DNA from: a virus
Taxonomy: Duplodnaviria > Heunggongvirae > Uroviricota > Caudoviricetes
Direction: 5' to 3' (one strand)
DNA length: 64,000 nucleotides
IMG/VR virus record: IMGVR_UViG_3300029522_000074
Every line of letters starts with the position of its first letter. Within the stretch, counting starts at the first letter, position 1. This document shows, piece by piece, positions 1 through 38,245 of the stretch. Both the position numbers and the translations under genes were made by a program. A model generated the notes under the pieces. The model was not told the DNA's origin. It did not search any database and was given only the letters and a program-made list of their open reading frames with translations.

Positions 1-197
1 TATGTAAATATTGTTAATAAAACAATCTATATAAACGCCCTTCTCAGGACGGAACATAGAGATTAAATCTATATAAAATCTATCTTCAACAGTGATTTTT
101 GAGCGCAAAAGCCCAAGGGTATGCTGTTCTTCCACCCATTCGTATATTCACTATTCAGTTTTGATTTTTTGGAAATTTTGAACTGAATTGTTCAAGA

Positions 198-590
198 CTA
201 ATCTAAGATATTTCCTGTTACTTCATACATTTCTAAATCGTTTAATTCACACCATGATTCAAAATTATCTCTCTGAACGTACCAACCAACATTCATTCCA
301 AGAAATTCATTCTCACCATTTCCATAAGATACTACATTATATAATTCTCCGTTTAGTATGTCGTTTTCAAAGATTAACTTGCCATTTTTATCATGGCTAC
401 CAGTACATCTACACAATGTCTTTGGATCTACTTCTTCAAAACCATCGGTTTCACCATGAGAATAGAATACTGTTGCTGGTTCAAATATTATATGAATTTC
501 TTTACCATACATATCTAAACCTTTTACATAATATCCACAAACCCATTGACCACTATTAATGCTCTTTGCTTTACATAGCTGCGTATCCAT
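198..590 (-). CDS. YopX-like phage protein
   Basis: N-terminal GQWVCGYYV motif and overall pattern resemble the YopX phage family; 130 aa; RBS GGAGG upstream. Confidence 0.45.
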   Translation of the reverse strand: MDTQLCKAKSINSGQWVCGYYVKGLDMYGKEIHIIFEPATVFYSHGETDGFEEVDPKTLCRCTGSHDKNGKLIFENDILNGELYNVVSYGNGENEFLGMNVGWYVQRDNFESWCELNDLEMYEVTGNILD

Positions 591-838
591 TTCTCACCTC
601 CTCAAAACCCGAATGAAACAGTGATTTCTTGCTATTCTTATATTCTCTGTTTCTTGATATTGATACTGTAAAACCCTTGATTTATAAGGGTTTTCAGCAC
701 CTCGTTTTTATTATTCTCTAAAAATCATTGAAAATTAGGGATTTTTGCTCGATTTGAGCATTTTTGAAATTTTTGACCTCTGAAACCCTTATAAACACTA
801 GGTTTGTAAAGCCAAAGAAATGTCAGTTTCCTTCGACT

Positions 839-1060
839 CTATTTCTTCACCGTTACATTGAAAACTGACCTTAAAATACAGATAATCAACCAAATACCAG
901 TTGCAATAGACCATTTAAATGTTATTCCAAAGCACATCGTAATAAGTTTGATAATTCCACATGTGACAATCCAACTAAGTCCATAGCACGCAGCTAAAAT
1001 TGTAATGACAATAACTGCTGTTGTGCCACCTTTTGTTAATTTTTCCTTCAAATTGCTCAT
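839..1060 (-). CDS. small hydrophobic membrane protein (two predicted TM segments)
   Basis: 73 aa, two hydrophobic stretches; position between blocks is compatible with a holin or membrane effector. Confidence 0.4.
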   Translation of the reverse strand: MSNLKEKLTKGGTTAVIVITILAACYGLSWIVTCGIIKLITMCFGITFKWSIATGIWLIICILRSVFNVTVKK

Positions 1061-1097
1061 ATGTACCTCTCTTTCTTTACTTTTATATTCTCTCTTA

Positions 1098-1343
1098 TTA
1101 ATATAATTTCATACTTAATTCAGAAACTTGTTCTTTAATTTCATCCACTTCTGTTAAACCATTTATATGTTCTAACTTGTGATTGATATCATTTATGTCA
1201 GATTCAATCTCGTCAATTATTTGAATAACAACACTTTTGGGAATAAATTCTTCCCTATCATCAAATTCATAATCAGTTAAATCACCATACTGATATGCTT
1301 CCTTGTCTATTTGTTCTCTATAATTTGTATTTTTATATGCCAT
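1098..1343 (-). CDS. hypothetical acidic protein
   Basis: 81 aa ORF in the dense minus-strand array. Confidence 0.35.
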   Translation of the reverse strand: MAYKNTNYREQIDKEAYQYGDLTDYEFDDREEFIPKSVVIQIIDEIESDINDINHKLEHINGLTEVDEIKEQVSELSMKLY

Positions 1344-1389
1344 TATCTTTACCTCCTCGCATGAAATCGAAATTTCTTGGTACTTTTAT

Positions 1390-1433
1390 CGCTATATATA
1401 GCGTATATTCATTTAGCGCACACTATATATAGT
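1390..1433. promoter_or_regulatory. paired palindromic sites CGCTATATATAGCG and CACTATATATAGT, centres about 31 bp apart
   Basis: Two near-perfect 12-14 bp palindromes sharing the core CTATATATAG, in an intergenic gap; same architecture recurs at 19710 and 27585. Confidence 0.45.
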
Positions 1434-1441
1434 ATCTTATT

Positions 1442-1735
1442 TTACTCTACCACGTCCCAATCTTCTGCAAGCATATCTGTCTGACTTGCAAGCCATCCAA
1501 TAACTAATTTATTGTCTGCTGTCTTCATATCAATATGTGGGCAAATTTCAATTTCGTCCATGCCTTTATCTTTACAAAAACTTCTTAAATAATTTGCTAT
1601 TTCTGGTTTCATTTCATCTAAATGAACAACACTTCCTGTTGTCATATACAAAAACATGCCCTTACCATTCCATCCAACTCTTGCTACCTTTTTACCGTTC
1701 TTTAAAGCTTCAATTGCCTGTCCAAAATTCATCAT
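1442..1735 (-). CDS. DUF2829 family protein, Tad2-like (candidate Thoeris anti-defence gcADPR sponge)
   Basis: N-terminal FGQAIEALKNGKKVARVGWNGKGMF and C-terminal GWLASQTDMLAEDWDVV match, as I recall it, the DUF2829 signature to which phage Tad2 belongs; 97 aa. Confidence 0.6.
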   Translation of the reverse strand: MMNFGQAIEALKNGKKVARVGWNGKGMFLYMTTGSVVHLDEMKPEIANYLRSFCKDKGMDEIEICPHIDMKTADNKLVIGWLASQTDMLAEDWDVVE

Positions 1736-1756
1736 TTTAAAATCTCCTTTACTTCG

Positions 1757-2122
1757 TTATCTCCAACTGATACTGTAATATGGTTCATTGTACTGAGTAC
1801 CAGTCTCGACTTTATAACCAAGTTCTTCTAATTTCTTTCGTGTTTCAGGTTTCAAAGAACCATCTTCACTAATTGAAAATTTGCCATCTGCAATCGCATC
1901 TCTAATTAATTTAGATAATTCTGCTAATTGTTGCGTAGTGCAGTTATCAATTGCGTTATTTGTCATCTTATTTGCTTCTGATGCAGACGGAATAACATTC
2001 TTTGGTGACTGAACTTCTGGCATAGGAATGTTGGAAGTAATAGCATCTTCACAACAATCTGCATCGCTACATCCTAAACAAAATTTATAACTTCTGTTAG
2101 TTATTGGGTACTTACAAGTCAT
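1757..2122 (-). CDS. hypothetical protein, Cys-rich N-terminus
   Basis: 121 aa; CxxC-rich N-terminal segment. Confidence 0.4.
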   Translation of the reverse strand: MTCKYPITNRSYKFCLGCSDADCCEDAITSNIPMPEVQSPKNVIPSASEANKMTNNAIDNCTTQQLAELSKLIRDAIADGKFSISEDGSLKPETRKKLEELGYKVETGTQYNEPYYSISWR

Positions 2123-2137
2123 TTATTCATCCTCCTT

Positions 2138-2575
2138 TTAAACCTGTTTATATAACTGATTTTGGAGCTTCCCTAATACCTTATTAACAGCAACCTTGCC
2201 CATTTCTTTATTCCATATTTCACCTTGTCTAACCCTTGCAAAGAATAAAGCATATTCTGAAATATTATTTTCCACATCTTCGTAAAATTTTTCGTCCTCT
2301 TCACTATCATCAAATTCAGATTTACATGAACTAATAATCATCACAGCTAAAAAATCTTTTGCAACCTGTATTAATCCGTCTGATGTCTTGATTTGATCAT
2401 TTAGAAAATCATTTGTTTCTATTGTTGATTTTTCTGGTACAGAAAAATAATATAACTGCTTAAAATCTTGCTCTTTTGTGTCTTCAATATGAATTCCCAT
2501 ATATTCTAATGTAAGTATAGTTTTAAGATTTTCTTCAATCTGTTTTGAATTATTCTCTAATTCTATTGGTATCAC
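2138..2575 (-). CDS. hypothetical protein
   Basis: 145 aa ORF, no recognisable motif. Confidence 0.4.
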   Translation of the reverse strand: MIPIELENNSKQIEENLKTILTLEYMGIHIEDTKEQDFKQLYYFSVPEKSTIETNDFLNDQIKTSDGLIQVAKDFLAVMIISSCKSEFDDSEEDEKFYEDVENNISEYALFFARVRQGEIWNKEMGKVAVNKVLGKLQNQLYKQV

Positions 2576-2842
2576 CTCCTACATTCCAACATATTCAGGA
2601 AATTTTTCATAGATTTTATTCCACTCTTCAATAATTCTTCTATTCATAATTTCCTGATCAATCAATTCTTCTACGATTTTTGCAGTAGCACACTGCGTCT
2701 GACTTCTAAGAATTTTACAAGCATTTTTCTTATACTCTTCTAAATCTTCTATAGAAACACTTGACAGCATTGTATTTTCATTTGTTAATCCTTGCATTAC
2801 TGATGGTGTTATCATTCGTTTCACCTCCACACGAAACCGATA

Positions 2843-3403
2843 TTACTTATTTTTTGATTCAAATTCTTCAAATGCTTTATAAAACTCACTGCCTTTTATC
2901 TCTTCAAAACCATTTTCATAAGGAGTTAATGAATTATAGCGATTAGTACTCATACGTAAGTATTGTTTTCCATTGTATTCAAAACTTGTTCTTGAATAGC
3001 CACCCATTTCCGTTTCTTCGAAGTAGTCTCCACACCTCAAAGGATAAGCATTAATAACTATCTCCTTTTTAATACATTCATCTTGAAATTGCTTTAATAT
3101 TTTGCAACCTTTTTTAAACTTTCTCATACTTTGACCTTCAAACATTTTAGGTTTGTTTAATTGATTACCAAATTTTTCACTATTTTCCTGCACATCATCA
3201 ATATACAATTCAATATTACTTTTTGTGTTTTCCTTAAACGCAACATTAACATTACCATCTCCACGCATATAATAATGATTTCCACTTATTCCTATGCGAT
3301 TGAAAAAATCTTTGATAAATTCTCTTCTGTTTTTTTCTATTACTTCATCACGATGTAACCCTTTTAAAAAATCTTCATTTGTTACAATATAAAATTTCTC
3401 CAT
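2843..3403 (-). CDS. hypothetical protein
   Basis: 186 aa ORF directly downstream of the AdSS-like gene. Confidence 0.4.
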   Translation of the reverse strand: MEKFYIVTNEDFLKGLHRDEVIEKNRREFIKDFFNRIGISGNHYYMRGDGNVNVAFKENTKSNIELYIDDVQENSEKFGNQLNKPKMFEGQSMRKFKKGCKILKQFQDECIKKEIVINAYPLRCGDYFEETEMGGYSRTSFEYNGKQYLRMSTNRYNSLTPYENGFEEIKGSEFYKAFEEFESKNK

Positions 3404-3445
3404 TTTTTACCTCCATATTTCCAAAAGAACGAATCTTTCTTGTTC

Positions 3446-4537
3446 TCAGTTCACATCATTATGTGTTTCACCATCTGAGTAATAAATATTCCAATCCTTG
3501 AATAACTCAATCAATTTATCATTATCCCAATCATATTCATTACAATGTGTAATGGTGATTGATTTTTTATCTCCAAAGTTTCCTATATCATTAGAGCATC
3601 TACTATATAATTCTCCTAAATCCAGTGTTCCATATCTCAATGTATCCTGGAATGGATTTGGCACATTTGTTTTATCAAACATATATTCGTTGATAAATCT
3701 CTTATTACATTCAGATGGGAATTTACCAGCACCATGTCTTGTTAAATAAGTACGCGATACATAACAAGTTTCAATATTTATCTCATCATTCCATTCAACA
3801 TTTTCAATTATTCTCTTGGGATTTTTAATACCTGTATTAGACGGTGTTAGATGTGGAAAATATTCTGTGTTGTTCTGATCAAGCAATAAACCTTGTGCAG
3901 CTTCAAATACAATATTGTCAAATTGATTTAAGAAATAATTATCTGATATAGCCAATGAGTGATTATTCATAAAATCCCAATCATCTAAAAAGTGTTCAAA
4001 TATACCATTATCAAGGAATATTTTTGACCATTCATCTGTTAATATAATATTCTCTCTTTCAAATTGTTCTAAGTAGTATTCCCTGATATGATTATCTACA
4101 TCAGTTATGCCAGCTTTATATCTTTTGATAGTTTCAAAAATTCCCAAGCCACAACTACCATGTTTATTTTTTCCACGATTTTCTTCTATAATCTGATTTG
4201 CCATCATATCAAAAGGTGTAGTCAACATACAATTTTGATTGATATAAACATTCGTAATATATCCTAATTTCATCAATTCATCATATTCCTGCTTAAAGAT
4301 AATTGGATTAACAATAAAATCCTCAGATAAATATGTACTTGCATGATTGAATGTTCCAGATCCAAAATGATGAAAGACATGTCTGATTCCATCAGGCGTT
4401 GTTACGGTATGTCCTCTCTGAGCACCACCATTTGAACAAACAACAATACTATTAGGTTTCTGTGAGAAATAATCTGTCATTAATCCCTTTCCACAATCTC
4501 CAAAGTTAGCACCTATTACAATCTTAATGTCTTTCAT
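3446..4537 (-). CDS. adenylosuccinate synthetase family protein, short form (PurA/PurZ-like)
   Basis: P-loop IVIGANFGDCGKG (compare GDEGKGK), GAQRGHTV (compare GHNAGHTV), EAAQGLLLDQNNTEYFPHLTPSNT (compare [22 protein letters not shown]), YLTRHGAGKFP (compare TTRVGSGPFP); 363 aa, the size of archaeal-type PurA and phage PurZ. Confidence 0.75.
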   Translation of the reverse strand: MKDIKIVIGANFGDCGKGLMTDYFSQKPNSIVVCSNGGAQRGHTVTTPDGIRHVFHHFGSGTFNHASTYLSEDFIVNPIIFKQEYDELMKLGYITNVYINQNCMLTTPFDMMANQIIEENRGKNKHGSCGLGIFETIKRYKAGITDVDNHIREYYLEQFERENIILTDEWSKIFLDNGIFEHFLDDWDFMNNHSLAISDNYFLNQFDNIVFEAAQGLLLDQNNTEYFPHLTPSNTGIKNPKRIIENVEWNDEINIETCYVSRTYLTRHGAGKFPSECNKRFINEYMFDKTNVPNPFQDTLRYGTLDLGELYSRCSNDIGNFGDKKSITITHCNEYDWDNDKLIELFKDWNIYYSDGETHNDVN

Positions 4538-4554
4538 CTCTTAAATCTCCTATC

Positions 4555-5454
4555 CTACCAAGTAATTCCTTCTGAGTTAGAAGGTGTAGTAACTGTATCT
4601 GTAACATTATTCTCTGCTTCACTAACAATAATATCTACAATCTCATTTGTAATACTATCCATAGTTACTCTTCTAAAGTGTGTATCATCAAGATACTTCT
4701 TGTAGGACTTCTCAATTTCTTCTTCATCCCATCTGTGACCGTGATTTACATCTAAATGATAAATGTTAAACTTCTGAGAAGCCTCTTCGTATAAATCCTT
4801 AGTCTCTACATCAGACTGAAGGTTATCACCTGTCACCTCTGATAAGCCATGACCTCTACTCTTAAATGGAAGATATGGATTTAACTGCTCATCACCCATT
4901 GTAATAATAATTCCTTTTCTTCTACGGTTTAAGCAATCAAGCTTTGTGTGACGAGAACCGAAATACCATGCTGCTGTGTAGGATTCATAACTATTTCCAC
5001 CACCGCCAAATTCAAAATAAATCTTGTCAAGCTGTTCAGCAATACGAATATCTGACTCAAACTGTGAAGCCTGAATTGGATAGCTATCACAAGCTAAATC
5101 ACCAATACCCATGATAAGGAACTCAACATCTGTAACCTTTTCATATAACTTAGTCATAATTACATTTAACTTCTTTGCCACTTCAACGGCAGCCTGTCCC
5201 ATAGAACCAGTTACATCAAGTGCAAGAATAACAGGAATTGTGTTTGGATGTTCCTCTGTATCGCAACACTCTCTAATAACATTCTTAGGATCAAGTGCAG
5301 AATCAATATTTCTTGCCTTAAACATGTCCTGATTAGAATAAGAACCTCTAATCATACCATCCGTTGAAACACTCATACCCTTTGTTGTTGAATAACTTAC
5401 ATAACTATCTCTTGTCCATGAACCGCATCCCATATTATGCCTCCTCCTCTTCAT
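4555..5454 (-). CDS. von Willebrand factor A (VWA) domain protein
   Basis: MIDAS motif ILALDVTGSM (DxSxS-type) followed by a VWA-like alpha/beta pattern; start may be an internal Met. Confidence 0.55.
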   Translation of the reverse strand: MKRRRHNMGCGSWTRDSYVSYSTTKGMSVSTDGMIRGSYSNQDMFKARNIDSALDPKNVIRECCDTEEHPNTIPVILALDVTGSMGQAAVEVAKKLNVIMTKLYEKVTDVEFLIMGIGDLACDSYPIQASQFESDIRIAEQLDKIYFEFGGGGNSYESYTAAWYFGSRHTKLDCLNRRRKGIIITMGDEQLNPYLPFKSRGHGLSEVTGDNLQSDVETKDLYEEASQKFNIYHLDVNHGHRWDEEEIEKSYKKYLDDTHFRRVTMDSITNEIVDIIVSEAENNVTDTVTTPSNSEGITW

Positions 5455-6052
5455 CTACTTCTGTATCATCGTCATCATTGCTACTCATATCAAAGTCGAA
5501 CATTCCGTCAAACATATCACCCATATTTCCACCCATCATCATAAGTGGTAACATAGAACTCATTCCACCATTGCCATTCATCATGCCAGCAGAACCATTA
5601 TCACTTTTCATCATCTGAGAAAGCATCATGTACTTAAAGATATTATTTGTACCTTTCTTACCTTTAATAACATCACTTCCAAACATCGAAACAATCTTTC
5701 CATAAAAATATGTATTGCCCATAAATACATGTCTTTCAGGAAGCACGGTTTCAATTGTTGAGTCCTCATAATTGATTACTGTAATCTTTGTCTTATCGGC
5801 TTCAATAACACATCTTGGCTTACCATTTACAAGAATGATGTCACCCTTCTCTACCTTATTAGTTGGAATAATAAAGAAGAATTCCTCTCCAATATCAAAT
5901 ACAAAGTTACTACAGTTTGTGAGCTTGCCAGTCTTGATGTTATATGTCTTATAACCACCATTTGTCTTAACTGCAATTCCACCATTCATAGAAAGTCTAC
6001 ACATTCCACTTCCTACCTTACCAAACATGCCATTTAAAAAATTGTTCATCAT
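5435..6052 (-). CDS. hypothetical protein with Met/Gly-rich region and poly-acidic C-terminus
   Basis: 205 aa; C-terminal MMGGNMGDMFDGMFDFDMSSNDDDDTEVDEEEEA low-complexity tail. Confidence 0.4.
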   Translation of the reverse strand: MMNNFLNGMFGKVGSGMCRLSMNGGIAVKTNGGYKTYNIKTGKLTNCSNFVFDIGEEFFFIIPTNKVEKGDIILVNGKPRCVIEADKTKITVINYEDSTIETVLPERHVFMGNTYFYGKIVSMFGSDVIKGKKGTNNIFKYMMLSQMMKSDNGSAGMMNGNGGMSSMLPLMMMGGNMGDMFDGMFDFDMSSNDDDDTEVDEEEEA

Positions 6053-6838
6053 ATTTATTTCCTCCTATGATATAAAATTATTGTTTACAATTACTTATTC
6101 TCTTAACTGCGACATTCTCATCAATTCTTCTTTGTCTGCTTCTGATAATGTCAATCCTGCTTTAATCCAAGCCTCTGTCTGTTCATCAATTTTCTTCTTA
6201 TATCCACCTTGAATTATCCCATTTTCACTTAGCAACCTCTTACAATTCTCATACTGAATATCATTTGTCTCATGTGCATTTCTAAGATTACTTTCTAAGC
6301 AGCGAATAATATCAATCAGCTCATCTTTTGTCATAGACTTTAATGTACTATCTGAATATGTTCTTCTTCCATCACCTATCGCCATGTTCAACCTGCTTAA
6401 ACAATCTAGCTGGAAATTCGTCTATATCGCCATCTTTATAAGCCTGTTCTTCACCAACCCAAACAATTTCAATTTTATTAGGATTAAAATTTGATCTACC
6501 AATAAAATAAGCCTTCTTACCTTTTTTATAAAATGTTGTATCCTCAATTAATTCAATAATATCTCCTCTTTTCATTCTTTTTCCTCCGATTTTTCATAAT
6601 ACTGTTTTATTAATTAGCTGTCCTATATAATTATTCTCCTATAACTATTTAAAACATCATTTATCTTATCAACTAATATTGTTGGATCACTTGACATACG
6701 ACATACAAATTCATCATTACAATAAACTTCATATACATCATCATATTCTGGTCTTCCCCAACAATCACATCCATTTACAACTTCAGTTTTCTCTATACGA
6801 AATATATTAATCACCTCCCAAGAAAGAAAAATTTCTTT

Positions 6839-9634: not shown

Positions 9635-10372
9635 CTAATTGCAATATTTCTCAATACCTTGTTTCATAATATCTCTTAATTCATCTTCCTCATATGTAGT
9701 ACCAAACTGCGACCAACTACAACTATGTTCTGTATCATTGTGTACTAATGCAAGTTTAAATACACTGCCACCATAATTCCTATATGTATCTAATTTGATA
9801 GCGTTGATATGAGGAATTTCTAAATACCAATTATGCTCTTTGTATTCAAAGTAAATATTAGTAGCTTGACCAAAATTAAAGTCAATGAATTTAACATCAT
9901 TCATATACTCAATATCAAGAAGCTTTTTAATATAATTAACATACCAATCATATGTTTCCTTTTCTTTATATTTCTTTCTTTTATCAAGCTTGTTGCCATC
10001 AGTATCCTGATTTTTTGATAACATATTTAGCCATTCTCTACACATTTTAATTGTGGACGGCTGATCAAGCAGCATATACTGGATGTTCTCTTTATAAGTG
10101 CGAAATGCCTGTTGTTCAATAAGATCACATTCATTCTTCATATCATCCAATGCCTGCTTCTTTGCAGACAATCTTCTTTCTGCTTGTGCAAATTTATTTA
10201 ATGAACTCATTTCGTATTCACCATCATAGTTGTATGTCCCATTTTTATATGTTAAAGACATTAATCGTTCACCTCTTTTATCTTTCCTAATTATAAAAAT
10301 CATTGATTTTATTCTTGCTTTAATATTCTCTACTCGATGGTCAATTTCATGTTGCTTCCATGATTTCTCCAA
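9635..10372 (-). CDS. hypothetical protein
   Basis: 245 aa ORF; a better RBS (AAGAGGTGA) precedes an internal Met at about 10261. Confidence 0.4.
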   Translation of the reverse strand: MEKSWKQHEIDHRVENIKARIKSMIFIIRKDKRGERLMSLTYKNGTYNYDGEYEMSSLNKFAQAERRLSAKKQALDDMKNECDLIEQQAFRTYKENIQYMLLDQPSTIKMCREWLNMLSKNQDTDGNKLDKRKKYKEKETYDWYVNYIKKLLDIEYMNDVKFIDFNFGQATNIYFEYKEHNWYLEIPHINAIKLDTYRNYGGSVFKLALVHNDTEHSCSWSQFGTTYEEDELRDIMKQGIEKYCN

Positions 10373-10965
10373 TTACCTTCTTGCTTTTCCTCTTTGATTA
10401 GTGGAAACTTCAAATCAACCTTTCTAACAATATCTGTCAACTTTTTATTGCCTTTTAAAACTGAAATAGAATGGCTTCTTCGATATGTATTAATTTTCAA
10501 AGCTCTTTCTAAAATTTTTTCATCTGATTCATAATCACTATTATATACATAAGCAAAACAGTACCCTTCTTTTATATTAGTATTACCATAATTAAAATCT
10601 TCGAAAATTACTTTTTTCTTACCAAGATATAAATACATTTCCCCTTGAGTTGATTTGTAAATTCCACCCACTTCTAATTTACTTAACGGAATTGTTTTTA
10701 AATTTGCTTTTCGCTCTCGATCTTCTACTTCTTTCTGAAGGAGTATATTTATTTTATCTCTAATTTCCAACTCCTTTTTCGTTGGATTTTCGATCAGATA
10801 TGTATTGCTTGTACAACTTTTATTAATATATTCTTCGCTATATCCTAAATAAACAACTGAGCTACCTTGAAAAACTCCAATATGCATTCCTGGTGAATTT
10901 CTACCTATTGCCATTCCAATACACATATCACCATCTTTAATCTCTCTACCTAAAATGTCTTTCAA
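10330..10965 (-). CDS. hypothetical protein
   Basis: 211 aa ORF. Confidence 0.4.
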   Translation of the reverse strand: MKDILGREIKDGDMCIGMAIGRNSPGMHIGVFQGSSVVYLGYSEEYINKSCTSNTYLIENPTKKELEIRDKINILLQKEVEDRERKANLKTIPLSKLEVGGIYKSTQGEMYLYLGKKKVIFEDFNYGNTNIKEGYCFAYVYNSDYESDEKILERALKINTYRRSHSISVLKGNKKLTDIVRKVDLKFPLIKEEKQEGNWRNHGSNMKLTIE

Positions 10966-11691: not shown

Positions 11692-12178
11692 CTAATTTTC
11701 TAACTTGCTTTCTTAAATCATACTCTTCTTTCTTACTATCTGTTCTCTGACACTTCTTCCGTAATTCATCACGCTGCTTAGTCAGTTCATCATACTTTTC
11801 AGATACATCAATCTCATCCAAGACTTCAATCTCAATCTTCTCACCACAATGAGGACAAAACTGAATTGGATAATTGTCTGTCTGTACCCATTCGTCTTCA
11901 TATGATGTAATAACTTCTGTATATGAAGTACAGAATCTCGGAATATATCTTTCATCATCCCGACAATCATCACTATAAATTAAATCTTCATCTGTGAAAA
12001 TGATGGCTTTATCATTCTGTATTTCATCACAACAATGCGTAAATGGCTTGTACTTGTATGAATGTGCATCATTGAATTTTAACTTGATTAGCTCTATCTT
12101 CATATTTATTCTCCTAGCTAAATTTCCACCAAAAATCATAAATTTTATGAATATGTTGATAACCTTTGTGTAATTCAC
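11639..12178 (-). CDS. hypothetical zinc-ribbon protein
   Basis: 179 aa listed; RBS AGGAGA precedes internal Met at 12103, the likely true start; CxxC pairs present. Confidence 0.4.
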   Translation of the reverse strand: MNYTKVINIFIKFMIFGGNLARRINMKIELIKLKFNDAHSYKYKPFTHCCDEIQNDKAIIFTDEDLIYSDDCRDDERYIPRFCTSYTEVITSYEDEWVQTDNYPIQFCPHCGEKIEIEVLDEIDVSEKYDELTKQRDELRKKCQRTDSKKEEYDLRKQVRKLDDQINDFYELGEWKGEY

Positions 12179-12590
12179 CCTTATATCTGCGAATCGCTTT
12201 ATTGGACTGTCGCTTCAAATAACTGCTTCTTTTACCTCTATACCATCTTTTATAATATGGTTTTGGATTTTCAACATATCCCAAACCTTTAATCAATATC
12301 TTATCTTTATATGTTACAGCATAAGGATATCTACACGACACTCTTTCTAAATATTTGAGATGATTTTGATGCCTTAAATATCTCTCACGCTTATTCATTC
12401 TCTTTTTCTTGGAATGATTCTTATGCTTTTCTTCATCGTGTTCATACCAATCACTACAATGATCAAAAGAATAAACCTTGCCACCAACTTTATCGCACCA
12501 AACACAGTTCTCAATATCTTCTTCGTCAATGTATGATTTATATTTTTCAAAGTCTTCATATCCATAAAGGCAATCTTTACATTTCATCAA
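12114..12590 (-). CDS. hypothetical basic Cys-containing protein
   Basis: 158 aa, Lys/Arg-rich C-terminal half. Confidence 0.4.
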   Translation of the reverse strand: MMKCKDCLYGYEDFEKYKSYIDEEDIENCVWCDKVGGKVYSFDHCSDWYEHDEEKHKNHSKKKRMNKRERYLRHQNHLKYLERVSCRYPYAVTYKDKILIKGLGYVENPKPYYKRWYRGKRSSYLKRQSNKAIRRYKGELHKGYQHIHKIYDFWWKFS

Positions 12591-12605
12591 ATCACCTCTT
12601 TTATT

Positions 12606-12803
12606 TTATTCTCCTAATTTCCTTCCACACCAAGGACAATACGAAATATATTCTTTCTGATGAACAAATCCATCGTCATATTCATCCCATTCAGAAGTTT
12701 CAATATCCAAATAATATTCATTTGTCAGTGGATCAACATATATCTGATTGTCAGGTGAATCATAATTACAACGGTTACACATACACTTACCTCGCTCTAT
12801 CAC
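12606..12803 (-). CDS. small zinc-ribbon protein
   Basis: CxxC...CPWCG motifs; 65 aa. Confidence 0.35.
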   Translation of the reverse strand: MIERGKCMCNRCNYDSPDNQIYVDPLTNEYYLDIETSEWDEYDDGFVHQKEYISYCPWCGRKLGE

Positions 12804-13671
12804 ATTCGTTAAAATCTAAAAGCATCTTATATTTATATTCTCCAAATCTTTCTTTCCAACGCTGCTTTGCTTTATCAGTATCCCAACTAAAAGGCATCAT
12901 ATGGTAATTGATGAGGAAACATGTATCTAAAACAACATCAGAATTAACATGATACATAGCTGTCATGTATTGATATGAACCGTAACAATGATGCTGATAA
13001 TAATGAGCTATCCCATCTTCATCAAATGTTTGTGTACTCAATTTGCCTAAATCGTGATACAAAGCACCTATTCTGAATCTTGCAGGATAAGCATATTTTG
13101 TGGAAAATAATCTTGATGCATATTTGCAGTGTTCAAATAAATTCATTGTATGATGCGGACTTTTCTGATCAAATCCTCTCATATCTGGAATATCATTTGG
13201 TTCGTAATCATTTAATAAATTATGAATAATAATCTCATCGAATCCTTCCTCGTAGAACGGAATCTGAAATTTTCTAATCTGCTTATCCAACACAAAGTCA
13301 GGTACAGGATGTTCTCTATGTAGATTATCTTTTTTGCACTGTTCAAATGGCTTTGGAATAATTACACATACTTTTCTGACATTTAAACCATTTACTTTCA
13401 TCATAATTGCTCTGCGAGATTTCATAGTCAGATTAGTCGCATCTGCGATTACATTCTTTTTATTCTCCAAATTCTTACGGATTCTATCATGAAAAATTTT
13501 GAATACTTCTTCATTATGTTCTTGATTTTCGTAATTACCAGTCAATTCCTCACGAATTGCATCGGATGATACGATTATTGTATTTGGATTCTCATTGGCA
13601 ATCTGAGTGGCAATGGTTGACTTGCCACTACCACTCAAACCACACATAATATACAATGTAGGTTTATTCAT
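12787..13671 (-). CDS. P-loop kinase fused to HD phosphohydrolase (polynucleotide kinase-phosphatase-like RNA repair enzyme)
   Basis: N-terminal Walker A GLSGSGKST typical of PNK-type kinases; C-terminal HD signature ALYHDLGK...HYYQHH...D; 8-nt overlap with the upstream RNA ligase gene. Confidence 0.6.
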   Translation of the reverse strand: MNKPTLYIMCGLSGSGKSTIATQIANENPNTIIVSSDAIREELTGNYENQEHNEEVFKIFHDRIRKNLENKKNVIADATNLTMKSRRAIMMKVNGLNVRKVCVIIPKPFEQCKKDNLHREHPVPDFVLDKQIRKFQIPFYEEGFDEIIIHNLLNDYEPNDIPDMRGFDQKSPHHTMNLFEHCKYASRLFSTKYAYPARFRIGALYHDLGKLSTQTFDEDGIAHYYQHHCYGSYQYMTAMYHVNSDVVLDTCFLINYHMMPFSWDTDKAKQRWKERFGEYKYKMLLDFNECDRAR

Positions 13672-14983
13672 TTAAAGTCTCCTCGAATAACTCTTCAGCT
13701 TCTTCCATATCAGGCACATCAGATGTATCTTTAGCAATCCCCTCAATTACCTTAAATTCAAACACCTTATCCTTATAAGCTGTGAATGTTGCTCTATTAT
13801 CAATACGAACAACTACACCTTCAGCAACATGTGTCTTACCGATTTCATCTGCTGGCATACCATCAAGATATTTATTTACTCTTTCTTTCAAATCTTCTGG
13901 TGTAGTAAAAATAAACTTCTCTAAATCAGGTACATGCTTAACGCCCAACTTGTCACACCATACTTCTACAGTTTCCCAAGGCACTTCAACAACTGTTCCG
14001 TCTGCTGTTGTCATTGTCATTCGATATACATACATCTCATTTTCGCCTTGTTCACAGCCATATGAGAATGTTGTGGTGTCACCAAATTTCTTAGTAAATT
14101 CTTTTTCCTTAACTCCCTTATTAGATACTGAACCCATAATTGGTGTTGTTTCATTTACATATCCGACAATTTCATAGAAAATTTCAGCACCTTCAGGAAG
14201 CTTGTCTTTTAATAAATCGTGGTACTTCTTTCTAAATCCATTATCAGAATAATATCCATCATTCTTTGTCATATCCTTTAACACAACTCTTCTGCTACCA
14301 GATACAACAGAAACTTCTCTTATAACCTTTGGTTTCATATGTAAAAACTTTCTCAGCTTACTATTCTTCTTTGTAACCTTAACAGTCTTCATAGTACGAG
14401 CCGATGTTCCGTGGAGCTTACGAGTAATATAAATTGTATCTCCTGGCTTAAATGCTGATATATTATATGCAAGCTGTGCAGTATCTTTATGCTCCTCAAA
14501 AAATGGATATGATACTGTTTCTTTCTGAAACTTATTTTTCTTCTTTAAATTATTTCCATTACCTCTTGAACGATTTTTTCCTCTTGGAATATATTTTTGA
14601 CAAATCTCATGACCACCAAGAACTGTAATCTGATCGCCATCTTTTAATTTTGAAATATCTGTATACTTAGAAAGTGTTTCAACAGGTAATACAAGTCCTT
14701 CTGACTTCTCACCTCTAAGTCTAATAGCGGTTACATTTCTCTTCTCAGCATCCATATAACCACCAATGTTGTTTCCATTCTTATCTTTCTTTCTGACAAG
14801 GTTATTATCTGCTGCATACTCAAGTGATAACTGACCGTCAGATGGGAAGAATACTACTTTCTGTCCTTCCTGATAATTCAAATCTACAATTACATTCTGT
14901 CCAAATACCTCTACACACTGTAACCTATCAGCGTTACTATGTTTTCTTAATCCTTTTAATGTTGTGATATAAGCACAATACAT
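13664..14983 (-). CDS. ATP-dependent RNA ligase-like protein (N-terminal OB-like domain plus nucleotidyltransferase)
   Basis: Candidate motif I lysine in ITRKLHGTSA; 439 aa; co-transcribed with the kinase/HD gene as in phage tRNA-repair modules. Confidence 0.5.
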   Translation of the reverse strand: MYCAYITTLKGLRKHSNADRLQCVEVFGQNVIVDLNYQEGQKVVFFPSDGQLSLEYAADNNLVRKKDKNGNNIGGYMDAEKRNVTAIRLRGEKSEGLVLPVETLSKYTDISKLKDGDQITVLGGHEICQKYIPRGKNRSRGNGNNLKKKNKFQKETVSYPFFEEHKDTAQLAYNISAFKPGDTIYITRKLHGTSARTMKTVKVTKKNSKLRKFLHMKPKVIREVSVVSGSRRVVLKDMTKNDGYYSDNGFRKKYHDLLKDKLPEGAEIFYEIVGYVNETTPIMGSVSNKGVKEKEFTKKFGDTTTFSYGCEQGENEMYVYRMTMTTADGTVVEVPWETVEVWCDKLGVKHVPDLEKFIFTTPEDLKERVNKYLDGMPADEIGKTHVAEGVVVRIDNRATFTAYKDKVFEFKVIEGIAKDTSDVPDMEEAEELFEETLNE

Positions 14984-19759: not shown

Positions 19760-20497
19760 TTACGCCTGATACATAAAACTTGGCATTGGCTGTAATTTAA
19801 ACAGATTTTTCTCATGCATTGAATCAATCTTAGCTTTTACTTCCTCATTTGGCTCAATTCCATCTCTGATATATGCATCTAATTCAGCATAAGTAAATCC
19901 AAGGTTATCTTCATCAGTCTTTCCGCAAAGACCATCGGTAGGTGTCTTATCAACTAATTCTGACGGAAGCCCCAACTCACGACCAATAGCTTTAACCTCT
20001 GTTACTGTAAGCTGAGATAACGGACTGAAATCACCAGCAGCGTCACCATATTTCGTGGCGTAACCCACCCAATCTTCGGAAAGATTACACGTATTTGCAA
20101 CTCGACCATTTACTGTCTGTGATACTGCATAAAGCGTAGTCATACGAATACGAGCAGGAAGATTTGTTGTTGTCTGAATTGATAACTCTTCATCTAATGA
20201 TGTTTTAATTTCATATTCAGTAACATTCACAATTGTTCCGACTGGAATAATAGTACGTGGAATGTCTAAAAAACTGCAAAGTTTACGACTATATTCGATA
20301 TCTCTTTGTCTTCCCTGTGGCATCATCACACCAAAAACTCTATCCTTACCAAGAGCTTCTACACATAATGCAGCTACAACACTTGAATCCTTACCGCCAG
20401 AAATTCCCACTACTGCCATACAATCTTTACCATTCTGTTCAAACCAATTTCTGATCCACTCTACGATTTCATTTTTTACTTTCTTAGCATCAAACAT
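19760..20497 (-). CDS. nadE: NH3-dependent NAD+ synthetase
   Basis: PP-loop VVGISGGKDSSV, ARIRMTTLYAV, DFSPLSQLTVTEVKAIGRELGLP; 245 aa like Bacillus NadE. Confidence 0.85.
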   Translation of the reverse strand: MFDAKKVKNEIVEWIRNWFEQNGKDCMAVVGISGGKDSSVVAALCVEALGKDRVFGVMMPQGRQRDIEYSRKLCSFLDIPRTIIPVGTIVNVTEYEIKTSLDEELSIQTTTNLPARIRMTTLYAVSQTVNGRVANTCNLSEDWVGYATKYGDAAGDFSPLSQLTVTEVKAIGRELGLPSELVDKTPTDGLCGKTDEDNLGFTYAELDAYIRDGIEPNEEVKAKIDSMHEKNLFKLQPMPSFMYQA

Positions 20498-20513
20498 TTA
20501 TATATTCTCCTTC

Positions 20514-21140
20514 CTACATTCGATTCATCACATCATAGAACCGAATTAAATACTCATATACATTTCTAGGAACTAATTCTTTTACCTTTTCAAATTCACT
20601 CTTTTCACATAAATCTCTAACCAAACTTGAAGAAGTATGATTTTCTGGTATCTGAATTTCTGTGAAGTGATCTTTATATTCCATAAGATTTGCTTCTCTT
20701 AAAGCAGTCTCAAGATTCTGACCTTCTCTCACACATGCTACAAAATTATATTCCTCAACAAACGGTTTCCAATTATACCAAGTTGTAAGTGTTTCAATAT
20801 TATCCATTCCTAAACAAATATAGTATTCGTTGAAGATATAATCTTTTTCATTCATATCTCTTATCTGAGTAATAGTATTGTATGTCCTCTGTGGAAAGAA
20901 GCTGGTTGTTTCAACTTCGGATGCCCACATATTATTTTCATCACAATTTGGCATTGAATTAATTAGCGATACTCGACAATATCCAGGTATCAAAGTCTTT
21001 TTCTTCGCAACATATGTATCATGTGCAGGAATAAACAATATAGCATCGGCATTAACCGCTTTTTTAGCAGTCAATGCCATATCAACATGGGCGTTGGTAA
21101 TTGGATTAAAACTTCCTGGTATAAGTAAAATTTTATTCAT
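20514..21140 (-). CDS. nadD: nicotinate/nicotinamide mononucleotide adenylyltransferase (NadD/NMNAT-like)
   Basis: Nucleotidyltransferase motif PGSFNPITNAHV (HxGH-type); adjacent to pncB and nadE. Confidence 0.6.
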   Translation of the reverse strand: MNKILLIPGSFNPITNAHVDMALTAKKAVNADAILFIPAHDTYVAKKKTLIPGYCRVSLINSMPNCDENNMWASEVETTSFFPQRTYNTITQIRDMNEKDYIFNEYYICLGMDNIETLTTWYNWKPFVEEYNFVACVREGQNLETALREANLMEYKDHFTEIQIPENHTSSSLVRDLCEKSEFEKVKELVPRNVYEYLIRFYDVMNRM

Positions 21141-22434
21141 GATCCATTCTCCAATTAATACATCTCTTTAGATAATCAACATAATCAGGGTTTTTACACA
21201 TGCCTTTGCCTTCTACATCAGACACTTTTGCAACATCCATACCATTACATTTAGTGGTTTTCATTACAATATTTAAAGCAGGAACATCTGTGTCATTACT
21301 CAAATAAGTACCAATTCCAAATGCAACGTTTACTCTATCATGGAAGTGTCTAAATAACTTATCAGCTCTTTCAAAATCAAGACTGTCACTAAACAGAAGT
21401 GTCTTTGTCTTAGGATTGATACCAAGTGACTCATAATGATTAATCATTTTTTCACCCCATTCAATCGGATCGCCACTATCATGTCTTACACCACTGAATA
21501 ATGTTGCATATGTCAACTGAAAATCTTTCAAGAAACAATCAGTTGTAATTGTATCTGTGAGCGCAATACCATTTAACACACCATACTCTCTAACCCATGC
21601 GTCTAGGGCATACCAGTTTGAATATGCTGGATTGTGCTTGTGATTACCCTGACCAGAACACATAATCCATTCATGAGCCATAGTTCCAACAGGTGTAAGG
21701 TTATATTTCTTTGCAAGATATACATTAGAAGTGCCAACAAACTTAGATGGACTATGCAATGTATCATTCAAATGTGAAAACTTCTCAACAACTAATTCCT
21801 GTGCTTCAGCAGAAAGTCTTCTTCTAAGACCAAATTCAGAAAATGTACCAGCATACCAATGACCGCTTCTGAGATTTTCATACTTTTCATCTAATCTCTT
21901 TTTGAAACTATTAAGTAATTCCTCATAGTTATATGCCATTCTGAAATATACTTCGTTTACAATCGCAAGTGTAGGAATCTCATACATAGATGTATTAAGC
22001 CATGTACCAAATGTTTCGATAGAAAGACCGCAATCTGAATCTGTTGTAATTTCAAAATCCTCATATCTTGGCTGCCATAATCTCAGAAAATCAACATACG
22101 AACCTTTCATCCATTTGATATTATCAATATAAGTAAGTTCATCTTCTGTGAATCTCAAACCACAATATAATTTAATCTGTCTGCGAATCTCTTCTACCAT
22201 TTCTGGTGTAAAATGAACATCCTTATTACGACACTTAAAACTCCAAGTGGTTTTATAATCACTAAACTGATGATAAATAGCCTGTCCCATTGACAATTTG
22301 TAAGCATCTGTCTCCAATAAACTTGTAATAATCTGTTTCATATTATTTTCCTTCTTTCTTGATTTGATTAAATATTGTTCTAATATCATATTCTCTGTTT
22401 TCGTACTCATAAAACAGATTAATATACTTATCAA
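21133..22434 (-). CDS. pncB: nicotinate phosphoribosyltransferase
   Basis: LLETDAYKLSMGQAIYHQF matches E. coli PncB LLDTDAYKLHMQQAVFHH; likely true start is the internal Met at about 22341 (about 402 aa). Confidence 0.8.
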   Translation of the reverse strand: MISILICFMSTKTENMILEQYLIKSRKKENNMKQIITSLLETDAYKLSMGQAIYHQFSDYKTTWSFKCRNKDVHFTPEMVEEIRRQIKLYCGLRFTEDELTYIDNIKWMKGSYVDFLRLWQPRYEDFEITTDSDCGLSIETFGTWLNTSMYEIPTLAIVNEVYFRMAYNYEELLNSFKKRLDEKYENLRSGHWYAGTFSEFGLRRRLSAEAQELVVEKFSHLNDTLHSPSKFVGTSNVYLAKKYNLTPVGTMAHEWIMCSGQGNHKHNPAYSNWYALDAWVREYGVLNGIALTDTITTDCFLKDFQLTYATLFSGVRHDSGDPIEWGEKMINHYESLGINPKTKTLLFSDSLDFERADKLFRHFHDRVNVAFGIGTYLSNDTDVPALNIVMKTTKCNGMDVAKVSDVEGKGMCKNPDYVDYLKRCINWRMDHE

Positions 22435-22909
22435 TAAAAGTTATGTCATTTGGATGCATTGCAATTGGCTTACTTTTCTTAGATTTCCACCATTTTAATT
22501 CCTTCTCAAAATTAAACGATTTACCATAATATGCTCTACCTGCTCCAAGATAATCACAAAACATTTCTTTTTTATACTTCGTTGGCATTTCAATAGGATT
22601 CCCACCATTATCAAAATTGTCCTGCCAATATTCGTAATGGTGCTTGTTTCTTCCTTTATGGTGCATCCAAGCTGCTGACCAACCATTCTCTTTCTTACAA
22701 GCATCTATTGGACTTGAAGTACCTTGATAATACTTAACACTCTCCCAAAATTCTGTTGGAGAAAATTTAGATAAATCATGTACTAACCCTTGAAATGGAA
22801 TTCCCACTTTACAGCAATAGTAGAACACCCAATGTTTATGCGTACAGACTTTCTTAAAATGTCTAAAAGTATTAATGATATAATTCTTATACTTCATTAT
22901 TCTCTCCAA
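22343..22909 (-). CDS. hypothetical His-rich protein, possible HD-type phosphohydrolase
   Basis: H...HDLSK...MHHKGRNKHH pattern loosely resembles an HD metal-binding signature; 188 aa inside the NAD cluster. Confidence 0.3.
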   Translation of the reverse strand: MERIMKYKNYIINTFRHFKKVCTHKHWVFYYCCKVGIPFQGLVHDLSKFSPTEFWESVKYYQGTSSPIDACKKENGWSAAWMHHKGRNKHHYEYWQDNFDNGGNPIEMPTKYKKEMFCDYLGAGRAYYGKSFNFEKELKWWKSKKSKPIAMHPNDITFIDKYINLFYEYENREYDIRTIFNQIKKEGK

Positions 22910-23411
22910 TCACTTCGATCTGACACATCTTCATAGTTGCTAATGCAGCCTTATGAGTATTAGGTGTGACACCCGCACAACAACTTGCGTCTACTGTAAT
23001 ATCAATTTCAGGATAATTTGCTCTAATAATAAGTGCATTTGAAACCACACAGATGTCGGTACATAATCCGCAAATCTCAACACTTTCAAATTTAAAATCA
23101 TCCCAATGAGTCCATCCAAAAGTAATTTTGTCAATCAGAATGTCATTATCAATATCAAAATCTAACTTATCTGAAATCTGCCAACCAACAGTATTCTTTA
23201 CACAGTGAATAACAGGAAGATGTACACCTTCATATGTCTCTAAATAATTCTCAGGGTGTGTGTCTCTTGTAAAGATTATCTGTTTACCAGCATCCTTGTA
23301 CTCCTTAATTTTCTTTGCTACATTTGATACAATCGCCTGTGCTTCCTTTGTACCAAGTGTTCCATCAATAAAATCATTCTGCATATCTACAACAATTAAT
23401 GTTTCTCTCAT
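22887..23411 (-). CDS. pncA: nicotinamidase (isochorismatase-family cysteine hydrolase)
   Basis: VVDMQNDF catalytic Asp, metal site TRDTHPENY...H, catalytic Cys in ICGLCTDICV. Confidence 0.8.
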   Translation of the reverse strand: MRETLIVVDMQNDFIDGTLGTKEAQAIVSNVAKKIKEYKDAGKQIIFTRDTHPENYLETYEGVHLPVIHCVKNTVGWQISDKLDFDIDNDILIDKITFGWTHWDDFKFESVEICGLCTDICVVSNALIIRANYPEIDITVDASCCAGVTPNTHKAALATMKMCQIEVIGENNEV

Positions 23412-25923: not shown

Positions 25924-26367
25924 TCACCTCTTACATACTAAAATCTCAACATCCGTATCCGCAAAAATGCTTTTAATCTGTTCTGAGACATCGTTCCAAT
26001 TCAGCCTATCTAAACCACAACCAATTACAGGCATTGCAATCTTTTTGATATTATTATCCAAACAAATCTGTTTCATCTTTTCAAGTGCAAATTTCATTGT
26101 GATAATTGTTGGCTTGTGAAAATATCTCTCTTTTGTAATAAGATTAAATACTCTACCCTCTAATAGACAGTCACCACCAATTTTCTTATGAGTATACTGG
26201 TTAATATAATCTGGATATTTTGTCTGTAATTTTCGTTTCATATCAAATCTTTTATTGAATTCAACTACAATTCCTTTACCCATTCCAAAATCTGCACTGA
26301 TACAATGTGCTAAATTGTAATCTTCTGAAACTGTAAACAAGTCTTTATTCTCTTCACTGTATGTCAT
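25924..26367 (-). CDS. macro domain protein (ADP-ribose binding or processing)
   Basis: LAHCISADFGMGKGI and IAMPVIGCGLDRLNW match macro-domain Gly-rich loops; 147 aa. Confidence 0.7.
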   Translation of the reverse strand: MTYSEENKDLFTVSEDYNLAHCISADFGMGKGIVVEFNKRFDMKRKLQTKYPDYINQYTHKKIGGDCLLEGRVFNLITKERYFHKPTIITMKFALEKMKQICLDNNIKKIAMPVIGCGLDRLNWNDVSEQIKSIFADTDVEILVCKR

Positions 26368-31307: not shown

Positions 31308-31362
31308 TTAAGTACCTCCATTTGAATCTAAAACCATTATTTCTCCTTTCTTTAATATTTAA

Positions 31363-31435
31363 TGTGCCATAAGGGACTTGAACCCTCAACATCTTGATTA
31401 AAAGTCAAGTGCTCTACCTATTGAGCTAATGGCAC
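31363..31435 (-). tRNA. tRNA-Lys (anticodon UUU)
   Basis: Manual cloverleaf: acceptor GTGCCAT/ATGGCAC, D-arm GCTC-AATAGGTA-GAGC, anticodon arm CTTGA-CTTTTAA-TCAAG, T-arm GAGGG-TTCAAGT-CCCTT, discriminator A. Confidence 0.8.
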
Positions 31436-31439
31436 ACAG

Positions 31440-31512
31440 CTAGGATGGTGGGATTCGAACCCACGAATGTCAGAATCAAAATCTGATGTGTTGACCGCTT
31501 CACCACATCCCA
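31440..31512 (-). tRNA. tRNA-Gln (anticodon UUG)
   Basis: Manual cloverleaf: U1-A72 acceptor TGGGATG/CATCCTA (one G-U), anticodon arm TCAGA-TTTTGAT-TCTGA, T-arm GTGGG-TTCGAAT-CCCAC. Confidence 0.75.
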
Positions 31513-37237: not shown

Positions 37238-38245
37238 TTACATATTGTTTAACACATCTTTCATCCCCACTGCACCATTTGCATAATTATTAACTGTTGT
37301 ATTTACATTACTATGTCCTAACTGCTGCTGTACAAATGCAAGATTTCCATTTCTGTTCATTATACTAGCATAATAATGACGCATCATATGTGGTGTTATA
37401 CCATTTCCATAATTCTCAAATATCTGTTTGATATTTCTTTCTGTTGTACGAGTTCCATTTTTATTTACAAACACAGCTTCTGTATCAATAATGTTACTTA
37501 ATGTGCTTCTGTATTCTAACCACTCTCTTATAGCTTTTAAAGCAGATCCGCTAAGATATACCATTCTATTTTGCATTTCTCTGTACACACCTTTACCAAG
37601 AATAGTAATATAAGGCATTTCTTCATCCAAATGTAAATCAGACAAATCTAAACCAGCAAGTTCGGACTCTCTTATTCCAGTTCCTCTTAACACTCGAAAA
37701 ATAGCAATATTCCTATTTCTTACTGGAATATCCTTTTTCCACATTATCTTCTCTTCCATGTCGTTAAGCTGCTTTTCTGTTGGAAGTTTCTTAGTCAAGT
37801 TATTCCCAGATGGAATTCCTTTATAAGACACATCTTTAAAGAATCCATCTTTAATTTCAGTTCCCTTTACTCTACTCATATAATCCCAAAAGCTACTTAT
37901 CATATGCTTTCTGGTTTCCAATGTGGTTGGTGACATACCATTCTGTTCTTTATTTTTCAAATATAATGTAACATCCTCTGCCATAATATCAGTAAAATCC
38001 GATGGCTTAATATCTGAAATATTTGTTTTGTCAATAAGTTTTTCTTCAATAAACCAATTGAGTAAATCTACAATAACTCCAAGATAATTCAACGCACCTG
38101 CCTTACTCTCTATTCTAACAGTGAAATATTTTCTCATATATATAGGAAGATTTAACTCATCCAACTTGTTATTAAGCTTTTCAGCATTTTTGTTTTGTAC
38201 TTCTATTTTGTAACACATAATTATCAACCTCGCTTTCATAATCAT
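37238..38245 (-). CDS. tyrosine recombinase / integrase
   Basis: C-terminal catalytic motifs HMMRHYYAS and LGHSNVNTTVNNYA (R-H-R-Y family). Confidence 0.8.
   Translation of the reverse strand: MIMKARLIIMCYKIEVQNKNAEKLNNKLDELNLPIYMRKYFTVRIESKAGALNYLGVIVDLLNWFIEEKLIDKTNISDIKPSDFTDIMAEDVTLYLKNKEQNGMSPTTLETRKHMISSFWDYMSRVKGTEIKDGFFKDVSYKGIPSGNNLTKKLPTEKQLNDMEEKIMWKKDIPVRNRNIAIFRVLRGTGIRESELAGLDLSDLHLDEEMPYITILGKGVYREMQNRMVYLSGSALKAIREWLEYRSTLSNIIDTEAVFVNKNGTRTTERNIKQIFENYGNGITPHMMRHYYASIMNRNGNLAFVQQQLGHSNVNTTVNNYANGAVGMKDVLNNM

Follow-up and report, generated by a model that had tools for sequence, protein, structure and literature searches.

Tad2 of SPO1 (gp34.65; PDB entries 8SME/8SMF/8SMG and 8WJE) is the founding gcADPR sponge directed against type I Thoeris; it forms a homotetramer that sequesters gcADPR, relieving this defense. 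HgmTad2 (AcrIIA7; 8KBI-8KBM, 8WJC) and SptTad2 (8WJD) are dual sponges that take up both gcADPR and cGG/cGAMP, and ModTad2, also written MoTad2 (8V3E, 9EIB), sequesters His-ADPR (type II Thoeris) and also cUMP (Pycsar), and gave no inhibition of type I Thoeris. Four of the five diverse Tad2 homologs tested inhibit type I Thoeris, and about 1% of Tad2 proteins are estimated to be without a functional gcADPR site (Li et al., PMC10680739). Members of the family act on CBASS, Pycsar and Thoeris types I, II and IV, while 19 of 84 sponge homologs from the Acb2, Tad1 and Tad2 families (18 Tad2 proteins were among those tested) inhibited none of seven systems (Hadary et al.); a single protein, Tad2_71, inhibits three Thoeris types (I, II and IV). 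Because ligand specificities within the family are so diverse, the ligand cannot be read from Tad2 membership by itself, and it is the residues of the pocket, not family membership, that would carry an argument for gcADPR binding.

Two other kinds of phage function bear on the locus described here. Tad4 binds ThsB and blocks the TIR active site with a flexible loop. Phages can also reconstitute NAD+, through NARP1 (Adps and Namat), NARP2 (Nampt and Nmnat) or NARP3 (PnuC and NadR), and clusters of pncB, nadD and nadE have already been described in gut jumbo phages (PMC11662467).

The DNA analyzed here is a 64-kb stretch of viral sequence (64,000 nucleotides; the window throughout) with a G+C content of about 31%, a strongly negative GC skew and nearly all of its genes on the minus strand. 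Among GenBank phages it has a single partial match, to a 176-kb human-faecal record that carries no annotation. The exact protein sequence of its Tad2-like gene occurs in 99 blocks of the searched collection, the contigs being from the human gut and up to 226 kb long. The source is a widespread lineage of human-gut jumbo phages, with the SPbeta-like replication genes YorF and YorH.

A sequence-only reading of the window had pointed to a 97-residue protein encoded at 1442-1735 as a DUF2829 (Tad2-family) member. The open reading frame runs from ATG to stop over exactly this span (1442..1735) and lies on the minus strand, a detail which that reading had left unstated; translation of the plus strand yields many stops. 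Both of the blocks it quoted are present in the protein (EALKNGKKVARVGWNGKGMF, residues 9-28; GWLASQTDMLAEDWDVV, residues 80-96), the full sequence of which is MMNFGQAIEALKNGKKVARVGWNGKGMFLYMTTGSVVHLDEMKPEIANYLRSFCKDKGMDEIEICPHIDMKTADNKLVIGWLASQTDMLAEDWDVVE, and the gene occurs in a single copy within the window. Upstream, a Shine-Dalgarno sequence, AAGGAG, could be read 8 nt 5' of the ATG (1744..1749, minus strand) and is kept in both Tad2-bearing haplotypes considered below (A and B). The stop codon of the preceding gene is separated from the Tad2 start by a gap of only 21 nt, so that the arrangement looks operon-like. A promoter scan of positions 1-6500 returned 25 promoter-like sites as compared to 36 expected from shuffled sequence, and a terminator scan of the same interval found none 3' of Tad2 on the coding strand.

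Searches with the protein gave a uniform picture of its family. The Pfam model PF11195, currently named 'Tad2-like, Thoeris anti-defense 2-like domain', matched residues 2-96 along its entire length (profile positions 1-73 of 73) at E 1.2e-27 and 96.7 bits (cutoff 25), bearing out the DUF2829/Tad2 assignment; PHROG 1048 (E 3e-31) and PHROG 872 (E 2e-27) matched as well. A sequence search of the PDB recovered Tad2 proteins alone, at E 6e-24 to 4e-16: SptTad2 (8WJD, 6e-24) was followed by HgmTad2/AcrIIA7 (8KBI, 1e-21; 9KZR, 1e-20), with ModTad2 (8V3E, 9EIB) and SPO1 Tad2 (8SME, about 3e-16) among the further matches. Using a 70-sequence alignment of the subclade as input, AlphaFold2 produced a single-chain (monomer) model with a mean pLDDT of 91.3 and a pTM of 0.78, in which helices (H) and strands (E) follow one another as H4-12, E16-19, E28-32, E35-38 and H44-53 in the N-terminal half and E61-64, E67-71, H85-89 and E93-96 in the C-terminal half. 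The elements of the Tad2 protomer fold are present in this model: firstly, an N-terminal helix; secondly, an antiparallel sheet; thirdly, a short helix near the C terminus, ahead of the final strand. Structure comparison with solved Tad2 proteins by Foldseek likewise upheld the assignment, with 24 PDB matches at E 5.5e-11 to 5.5e-7, all of them Tad2 chains, and the first non-Tad2 match at E about 1. The best fold matches were the long-insertion proteins SptTad2 and HgmTad2 (TM 0.77-0.80), as compared to TM 0.58-0.69 for SPO1 Tad2, and identity to each of the characterized Tad2 proteins is just 45-49%. The 97-residue protein is clearly a member of the known Tad2 family, in an uncharacterized subclade.

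We compared the ligand pocket in an alignment of the protein with SPO1 Tad2 (sequence from NC_011421), HgmTad2, SptTad2 and ModTad2. The published contacts of SPO1 Tad2 to 1''-3' gcADPR are W25, N26, I63, T65, D67, H71, W73, S76, T78 and D79, and the window's protein has at these positions, in the same order, W22, N23, M70, T72, D74, I79, W81, S84, T86 and D87. Eight of the ten are identical, the replacement of I63 by Met is conservative, and H71, a water-coordinating residue in SPO1 Tad2, differs, being Ile here. For HgmTad2, the gcADPR contacts are N22, G23, M76, A78, T82, V84, W87, L88, T92 and D93, and the gcADPR pocket has been mutated in two sets, W21A/N22A and S90A/T92A/D93A (Li et al., PMC10680739). 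The contact and mutant-set residues are identical in the window's protein bar A78 and T82, where it carries the SPO1 residues T and K. All of the mutationally validated gcADPR-pocket residues are therefore matched (by W22/N23 and S84/T86/D87), and M70, T72, D74, V78 and L82 are also matched to known gcADPR contacts. Across the 70-sequence alignment of the subclade, the gcADPR-contact positions are conserved at 98-100%. Within the motif WLASQTD, the window's protein shares SQTD with proven type I inhibitors, while ModTad2 has WTPSVSD; at this motif the protein groups with the type I inhibitors, a placement that leaves room for His-ADPR or cUMP binding. Together, these comparisons predict a gcADPR site like those of SPO1 Tad2 and HgmTad2.

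From the residues of this pocket, we consider it probable that the 97-residue protein is a gcADPR sponge acting against type I Thoeris. On the model of SPO1 Tad2 and HgmTad2, the protein would assemble from four copies into a tetramer, and two pockets formed between dimers would enclose 1''-3' gcADPR (3'cADPR) and the 1''-2' isomer. The ThsB TIR protein makes the alarm molecule 3'cADPR on infection; with this signal sequestered, the ThsA NADase effector would stay off, NAD+ would be spared and the phage could replicate. We infer tetramer formation, gcADPR binding and Thoeris inhibition in the host, probably a gut member of the Bacillota, from the behavior of the characterized homologs.

The principal alternative is a Tad2-family sponge with other or broader ligands, such as His-ADPR (type II Thoeris), N7-cADPR (type IV), cUMP/cCMP (Pycsar) or another nucleotide signal, bound in addition to gcADPR by way of a second pocket in the insertion domain, or instead of it. 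Tad2 homologs with each of these alternative specificities exist, and the protein has an insertion of the long type that forms the second pocket of HgmTad2 and SptTad2, the long forms that are also its best fold matches. Spacing between GWNGK and W..S..D is 55 residues here, as compared to 56 in SptTad2, 62 in HgmTad2 and 44 in both SPO1 Tad2 and ModTad2, and the insertion is predicted to hold an extra beta3/beta4 pair and one helix, where that of HgmTad2 has two helices. In HgmTad2, R31, S47, F70 and N85 are each required for cGG/cGAMP binding (PMC10680739). The first, third and fourth of these correspond to T32, I64 and I79 in the window's protein, and S47 corresponds to M42 or E45, the alignment being ambiguous within the insertion. 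Moreover, the R/N pair is missing throughout the subclade, in which position 32 is T, V, Q or A and position 79 is I or V, and the loops of the HgmTad2/SptTad2 cyclic-dinucleotide pocket are shorter in the window's protein. Because all four HgmTad2 residues are replaced, we predict that the protein lacks a cyclic-dinucleotide site of the form seen in HgmTad2 and SptTad2.

The subclade does have polar residues of its own in or beside the insertion: H67 and D69, both invariant, and K/R43, which is conserved. They are missing in all four characterized proteins and might speak for a ligand of another kind. Judging from strand alternation, H67 and D69, and also K71 and K/R43, would lie on the face of the sheet opposite the gcADPR pocket. 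Residues H67, D69 and K/R43 may be structural, forming salt bridges with helix alpha-2, or may line a different second pocket; H67, D69 and K71 might be nothing but a salt-bridge network of this sort, which weighs against a further ligand, and the intact canonical pocket argues against the version in which another ligand is bound instead of gcADPR. Overall, we regard other or broader ligands as possible but unlikely, and prefer the gcADPR sponge.

Two of the best sequence matches, 8kbi and 9kzr, carry the labels AcrIIA7 or 'Inhibitor of Type II CRISPR-Cas system', by which the protein would be an anti-CRISPR of the AcrIIA7 type that inhibits Cas9. AcrIIA7 is HgmTad2, for which Cas9 inhibition was not reproduced in vitro or in vivo, nor was it for other Tad2 homologs, and which was shown to be a gcADPR/CDN sponge (Li et al., PMC10680739), a view shared by Yirmiya et al. 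As the published Cas9 inhibition could not be reproduced (PMC10680739), we rejected this function as very improbable for the window's protein.

Comparison with related contigs revealed that the surroundings of Tad2 vary between sister phages. Haplotype A, found in the window and in contigs L008-L013, has the PurA-like gene, then genes for proteins of 186, 78/83, 145 and 121 aa, and then Tad2. Haplotype B (L002-L007) has a 95% identical Tad2 allele with Tad4 directly upstream (9627-9971 in L002-L007; PF25186, 'Type I Thoeris inhibitor Tad4', E 1e-36), and haplotype C (L024-L028) has a homolog of the 121-aa gene and no Tad2 within 6 kb. Since Tad4 blocks the ThsB TIR, haplotype B couples a blocker of signal production to a signal sponge, and the presence of Tad4 next to a 95% identical Tad2 in sister phages supports a role of this Tad2 lineage against type I Thoeris. 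A search for Tad4 across the whole 64-kb window did not find it; in 80 loci from bacterial genomes, the surroundings of Tad2 yielded neither Tad4 nor the 121-aa protein. Tad4 occurs in one contig of haplotype B (L005, 9183-9971) fused to an N-terminal domain of roughly 150 aa that is 94% identical to window positions 10495-10965; as this domain matches part of a window open reading frame (10330-10965), the locus shows domain shuffling.

Between alleles A and B of Tad2 there are 13 nucleotide and 5 amino-acid differences (L29I, I46T, Y49H, V78A, D94N), with a dN/dS of 0.18 and none of the five substitutions at SPO1-mapped contact positions, and Tad2 is under purifying selection. That the gene is a decaying or functionless DUF2829 remnant, carried passively, is extremely unlikely in view of this ratio, the full-length open reading frame, the match to the whole profile, the strong Shine-Dalgarno sequence, the intact pocket residues and the identical protein in 99 collection blocks.

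Downstream of Tad2, RNA folding identified a 14-bp hairpin (1392..1432, minus strand) that has no U-tract and begins 9 nt past the stop codon. Its folding energy is -15.6 kcal/mol (z -2.6), its counterpart in haplotype B reaches -20.6 kcal/mol (z -4.8), and the changes in the arms are compensatory. The hairpin sits inside a conserved segment of about 78 nt (1362-1441) common to haplotypes A and B, which stops at the point from which the downstream genes differ. One contig, assigned by binning to a Lachnospiraceae MAG, has a Tad2 that is 82% identical and nothing else in common with the window, which suggests that Tad2 moves as a cassette; the binning of this contig is also a weak hint as to the host. 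Across the haplotypes, Tad2 behaves as a variable accessory gene in a mosaic region rich in counter-defense genes.

In the window, the position that Tad4 takes in haplotype B is held by the gene for the 121-aa protein, directly upstream of Tad2 (1757..2122, minus strand). This protein had no Pfam match and no similarity to Tad4, and its PHROG search gave two weak matches (E about 1e-4); its family is narrow, with 433 unannotated proteins, all in the same phage lineage. AlphaFold2 modeled it poorly (pLDDT 55.5), and its residues 30-60, which are predicted to be disordered, are nearly invariant. Between it and the PurA-like gene lie three haplotype-specific genes of 145, 83 and 186 aa (2138..3403, minus strand), for which Pfam and PHROG searches gave no match. 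The genes in the Tad4 slot have no counterpart in L002-L007 and are present in all six contigs with the exact Tad2 allele. By position only, these four genes (1757-3403) are candidate new anti-defense genes. We also entertain, as a speculative idea with a low probability, that the re-lined insertion of Tad2 (T32, I64, I79, H67, D69, K/R43) forms a pocket for a signal other than cGG/cGAMP, possibly an undescribed one, or that the cassette in the Tad4 slot encodes a new inhibitor of TIR/NADase defenses, including Thoeris. Within this cassette, the 121-aa protein (1757-2122) is the strongest inhibitor candidate.

The PurA-like gene that borders this cassette (3446-4537, minus strand) encodes a divergent adenylosuccinate synthetase of 363 aa that is 95-98% conserved in sister phages and adjoins a gene for a 299-aa protein (phrog_2971). 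We rejected a PurZ (aminoadenine) reading of this gene, for which the PurZ model reached 43.6 bits where its cutoff is 300; scores of the PurA models were likewise under their cutoffs, and the PDB matches were to ordinary PurA. Further along, at 12114-14983 (minus strand), an RNA ligase, a KTI12/AAA_33-type kinase and a third gene resemble a tRNA-repair module; a counterpart of the third gene in related loci has a faint metallophosphatase match. Thg1-like genes were found in L003, L005, L010 and L024, and in several sister phages lie just downstream of Tad2. The tRNA-repair-like module and the Thg1-like genes are consistent with a region rich in counter-defense. Tandem tRNA-Lys(UUU) and tRNA-Gln(UUG) genes (31362-31512, minus strand) were the only Rfam/ARAGORN matches in the window. 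On the minus strand, two tyrosine recombinase genes (Phage_integrase; 37238-38245 and 44380-45399) flank a GmrSD_N gene (39410-40210); such a region is unusual inside the genome of a jumbo phage and might represent a mobile element that has been inserted.

The sequence-only reading had also placed a set of NAD+ salvage genes about 18 kb from Tad2, and five genes are indeed present at 19760-23411 on the minus strand. Firstly, an isochorismatase-family gene (22887..23411, minus strand; PF00857, E 6e-27) encodes a probable PncA-like nicotinamidase, with a weak match to the nicotinamidase model PRK11609 and the motifs D9, D50-x-H52, K95 and C121 in its sequence; secondly, a DUF5662 protein is encoded inside the island (22343..22909, minus strand; PF18907, E 8e-33); thirdly, a gene for the nicotinate phosphoribosyltransferase PncB (21133..22434, minus strand) is recognized by NF003704 (486 bits, cutoff 379), TIGR01514 (406 bits), PF04095 and PF17767. 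The PncB open reading frame is of 433 aa, and gene callers use a 402-aa form starting near 22341, in relatives as well. These are followed by a NadD-like nicotinate-nucleotide adenylyltransferase (20514..21140, minus strand; PF01467, E 4e-15; TIGR00482 at 101 bits, just under its cutoff of 112) and the NAD+ synthase NadE (19760..20497, minus strand; PF02540, E 4e-53; TIGR00552 at 189 bits, cutoff 64). The DUF5662 gene sits between the nicotinamidase-like gene and PncB, and because this position is the same in 10 of 10 related contigs, its product may take part in the phage NAD+ pathway or regulate it, in a role so far unrecognized. An Rfam scan of the window found no riboswitch near the island.

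The route encoded by the island is Preiss-Handler from nicotinamide (Nam to NA, NaMN, NaAD and finally NAD+). Nicotinamide is the product of NADase effectors, and from its gene content the island could rebuild NAD+ from it; any counter-defense activity of such a Preiss-Handler phage route is putative. The order of the island's genes is the same in 10 of 10 related contigs, and the exact NadE protein turns up on contigs of 204-502 kb, in 316 blocks altogether; the island belongs to the fixed core of the lineage and is more widespread than the Tad2 allele. A two-level attack on the TIR/NADase axis, with Tad2 acting on the signal and the island on NAD+, had been put forward in the sequence-only reading and is plausible, although we arrive at it by inference. 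Specific coupling between the two found no support here, the island being core and Tad2 accessory. At 25924-26367 (minus strand), 2.5 kb from the island, there is a weak match, at E 2.5e-4 and 21.4 bits (cutoff 22), to the Macro domain, a type of domain that processes ADP-ribose derivatives.

Taken alone, the Tad2 gene is a routine annotation made with high confidence and represents no new kind of system. Its value is as a marker of a mosaic counter-defense locus, where sister phages have the Tad4-Tad2 pair and the window has a four-gene cassette, and the genes in the Tad4 slot, together with the possible re-lined second pocket, are better leads than Tad2 itself. The occurrence of a signal sponge and a complete nicotinamide-to-NAD+ pathway in one genome points to a possible layered answer to NAD+-depleting immunity.

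Set beside the described systems, the window's protein shares with SPO1 Tad2 the Pfam family, the fold, 48% identity, the W25/N26 and W73 positions, the SQTD motif and the strand motif KTADNK; it differs by 11 additional residues between GWNGK and W..S..D and by a fold match that is weaker than that to the long forms. With HgmTad2 and SptTad2, its best matches in both sequence and fold, it shares the alpha1-beta-beta-beta-alpha2-beta-beta-alpha3-beta topology, the long insertion and the predicted gcADPR site, whereas the cyclic-dinucleotide contacts are replaced, the pocket loops are shortened and one helix is predicted in the insertion. Family, fold and 48% identity are likewise common to ModTad2, which by contrast has a short insertion and WTPSVSD in place of the long insertion and WLASQTD found here. 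At the level of the locus, the window resembles the Tad4-Tad2 pair of L002-L007 in phage lineage, position, downstream 78-nt segment and hairpin, but has four unrelated genes where Tad4 would be. Finally, the NAD+ island, unlike NARP1, NARP2 and NARP3, is without their gene pairs and encodes a four-step route plus DUF5662, and in its clustered pncB, nadD and nadE it is like the gut 'NAD-jumbo phages' (PMC11662467).
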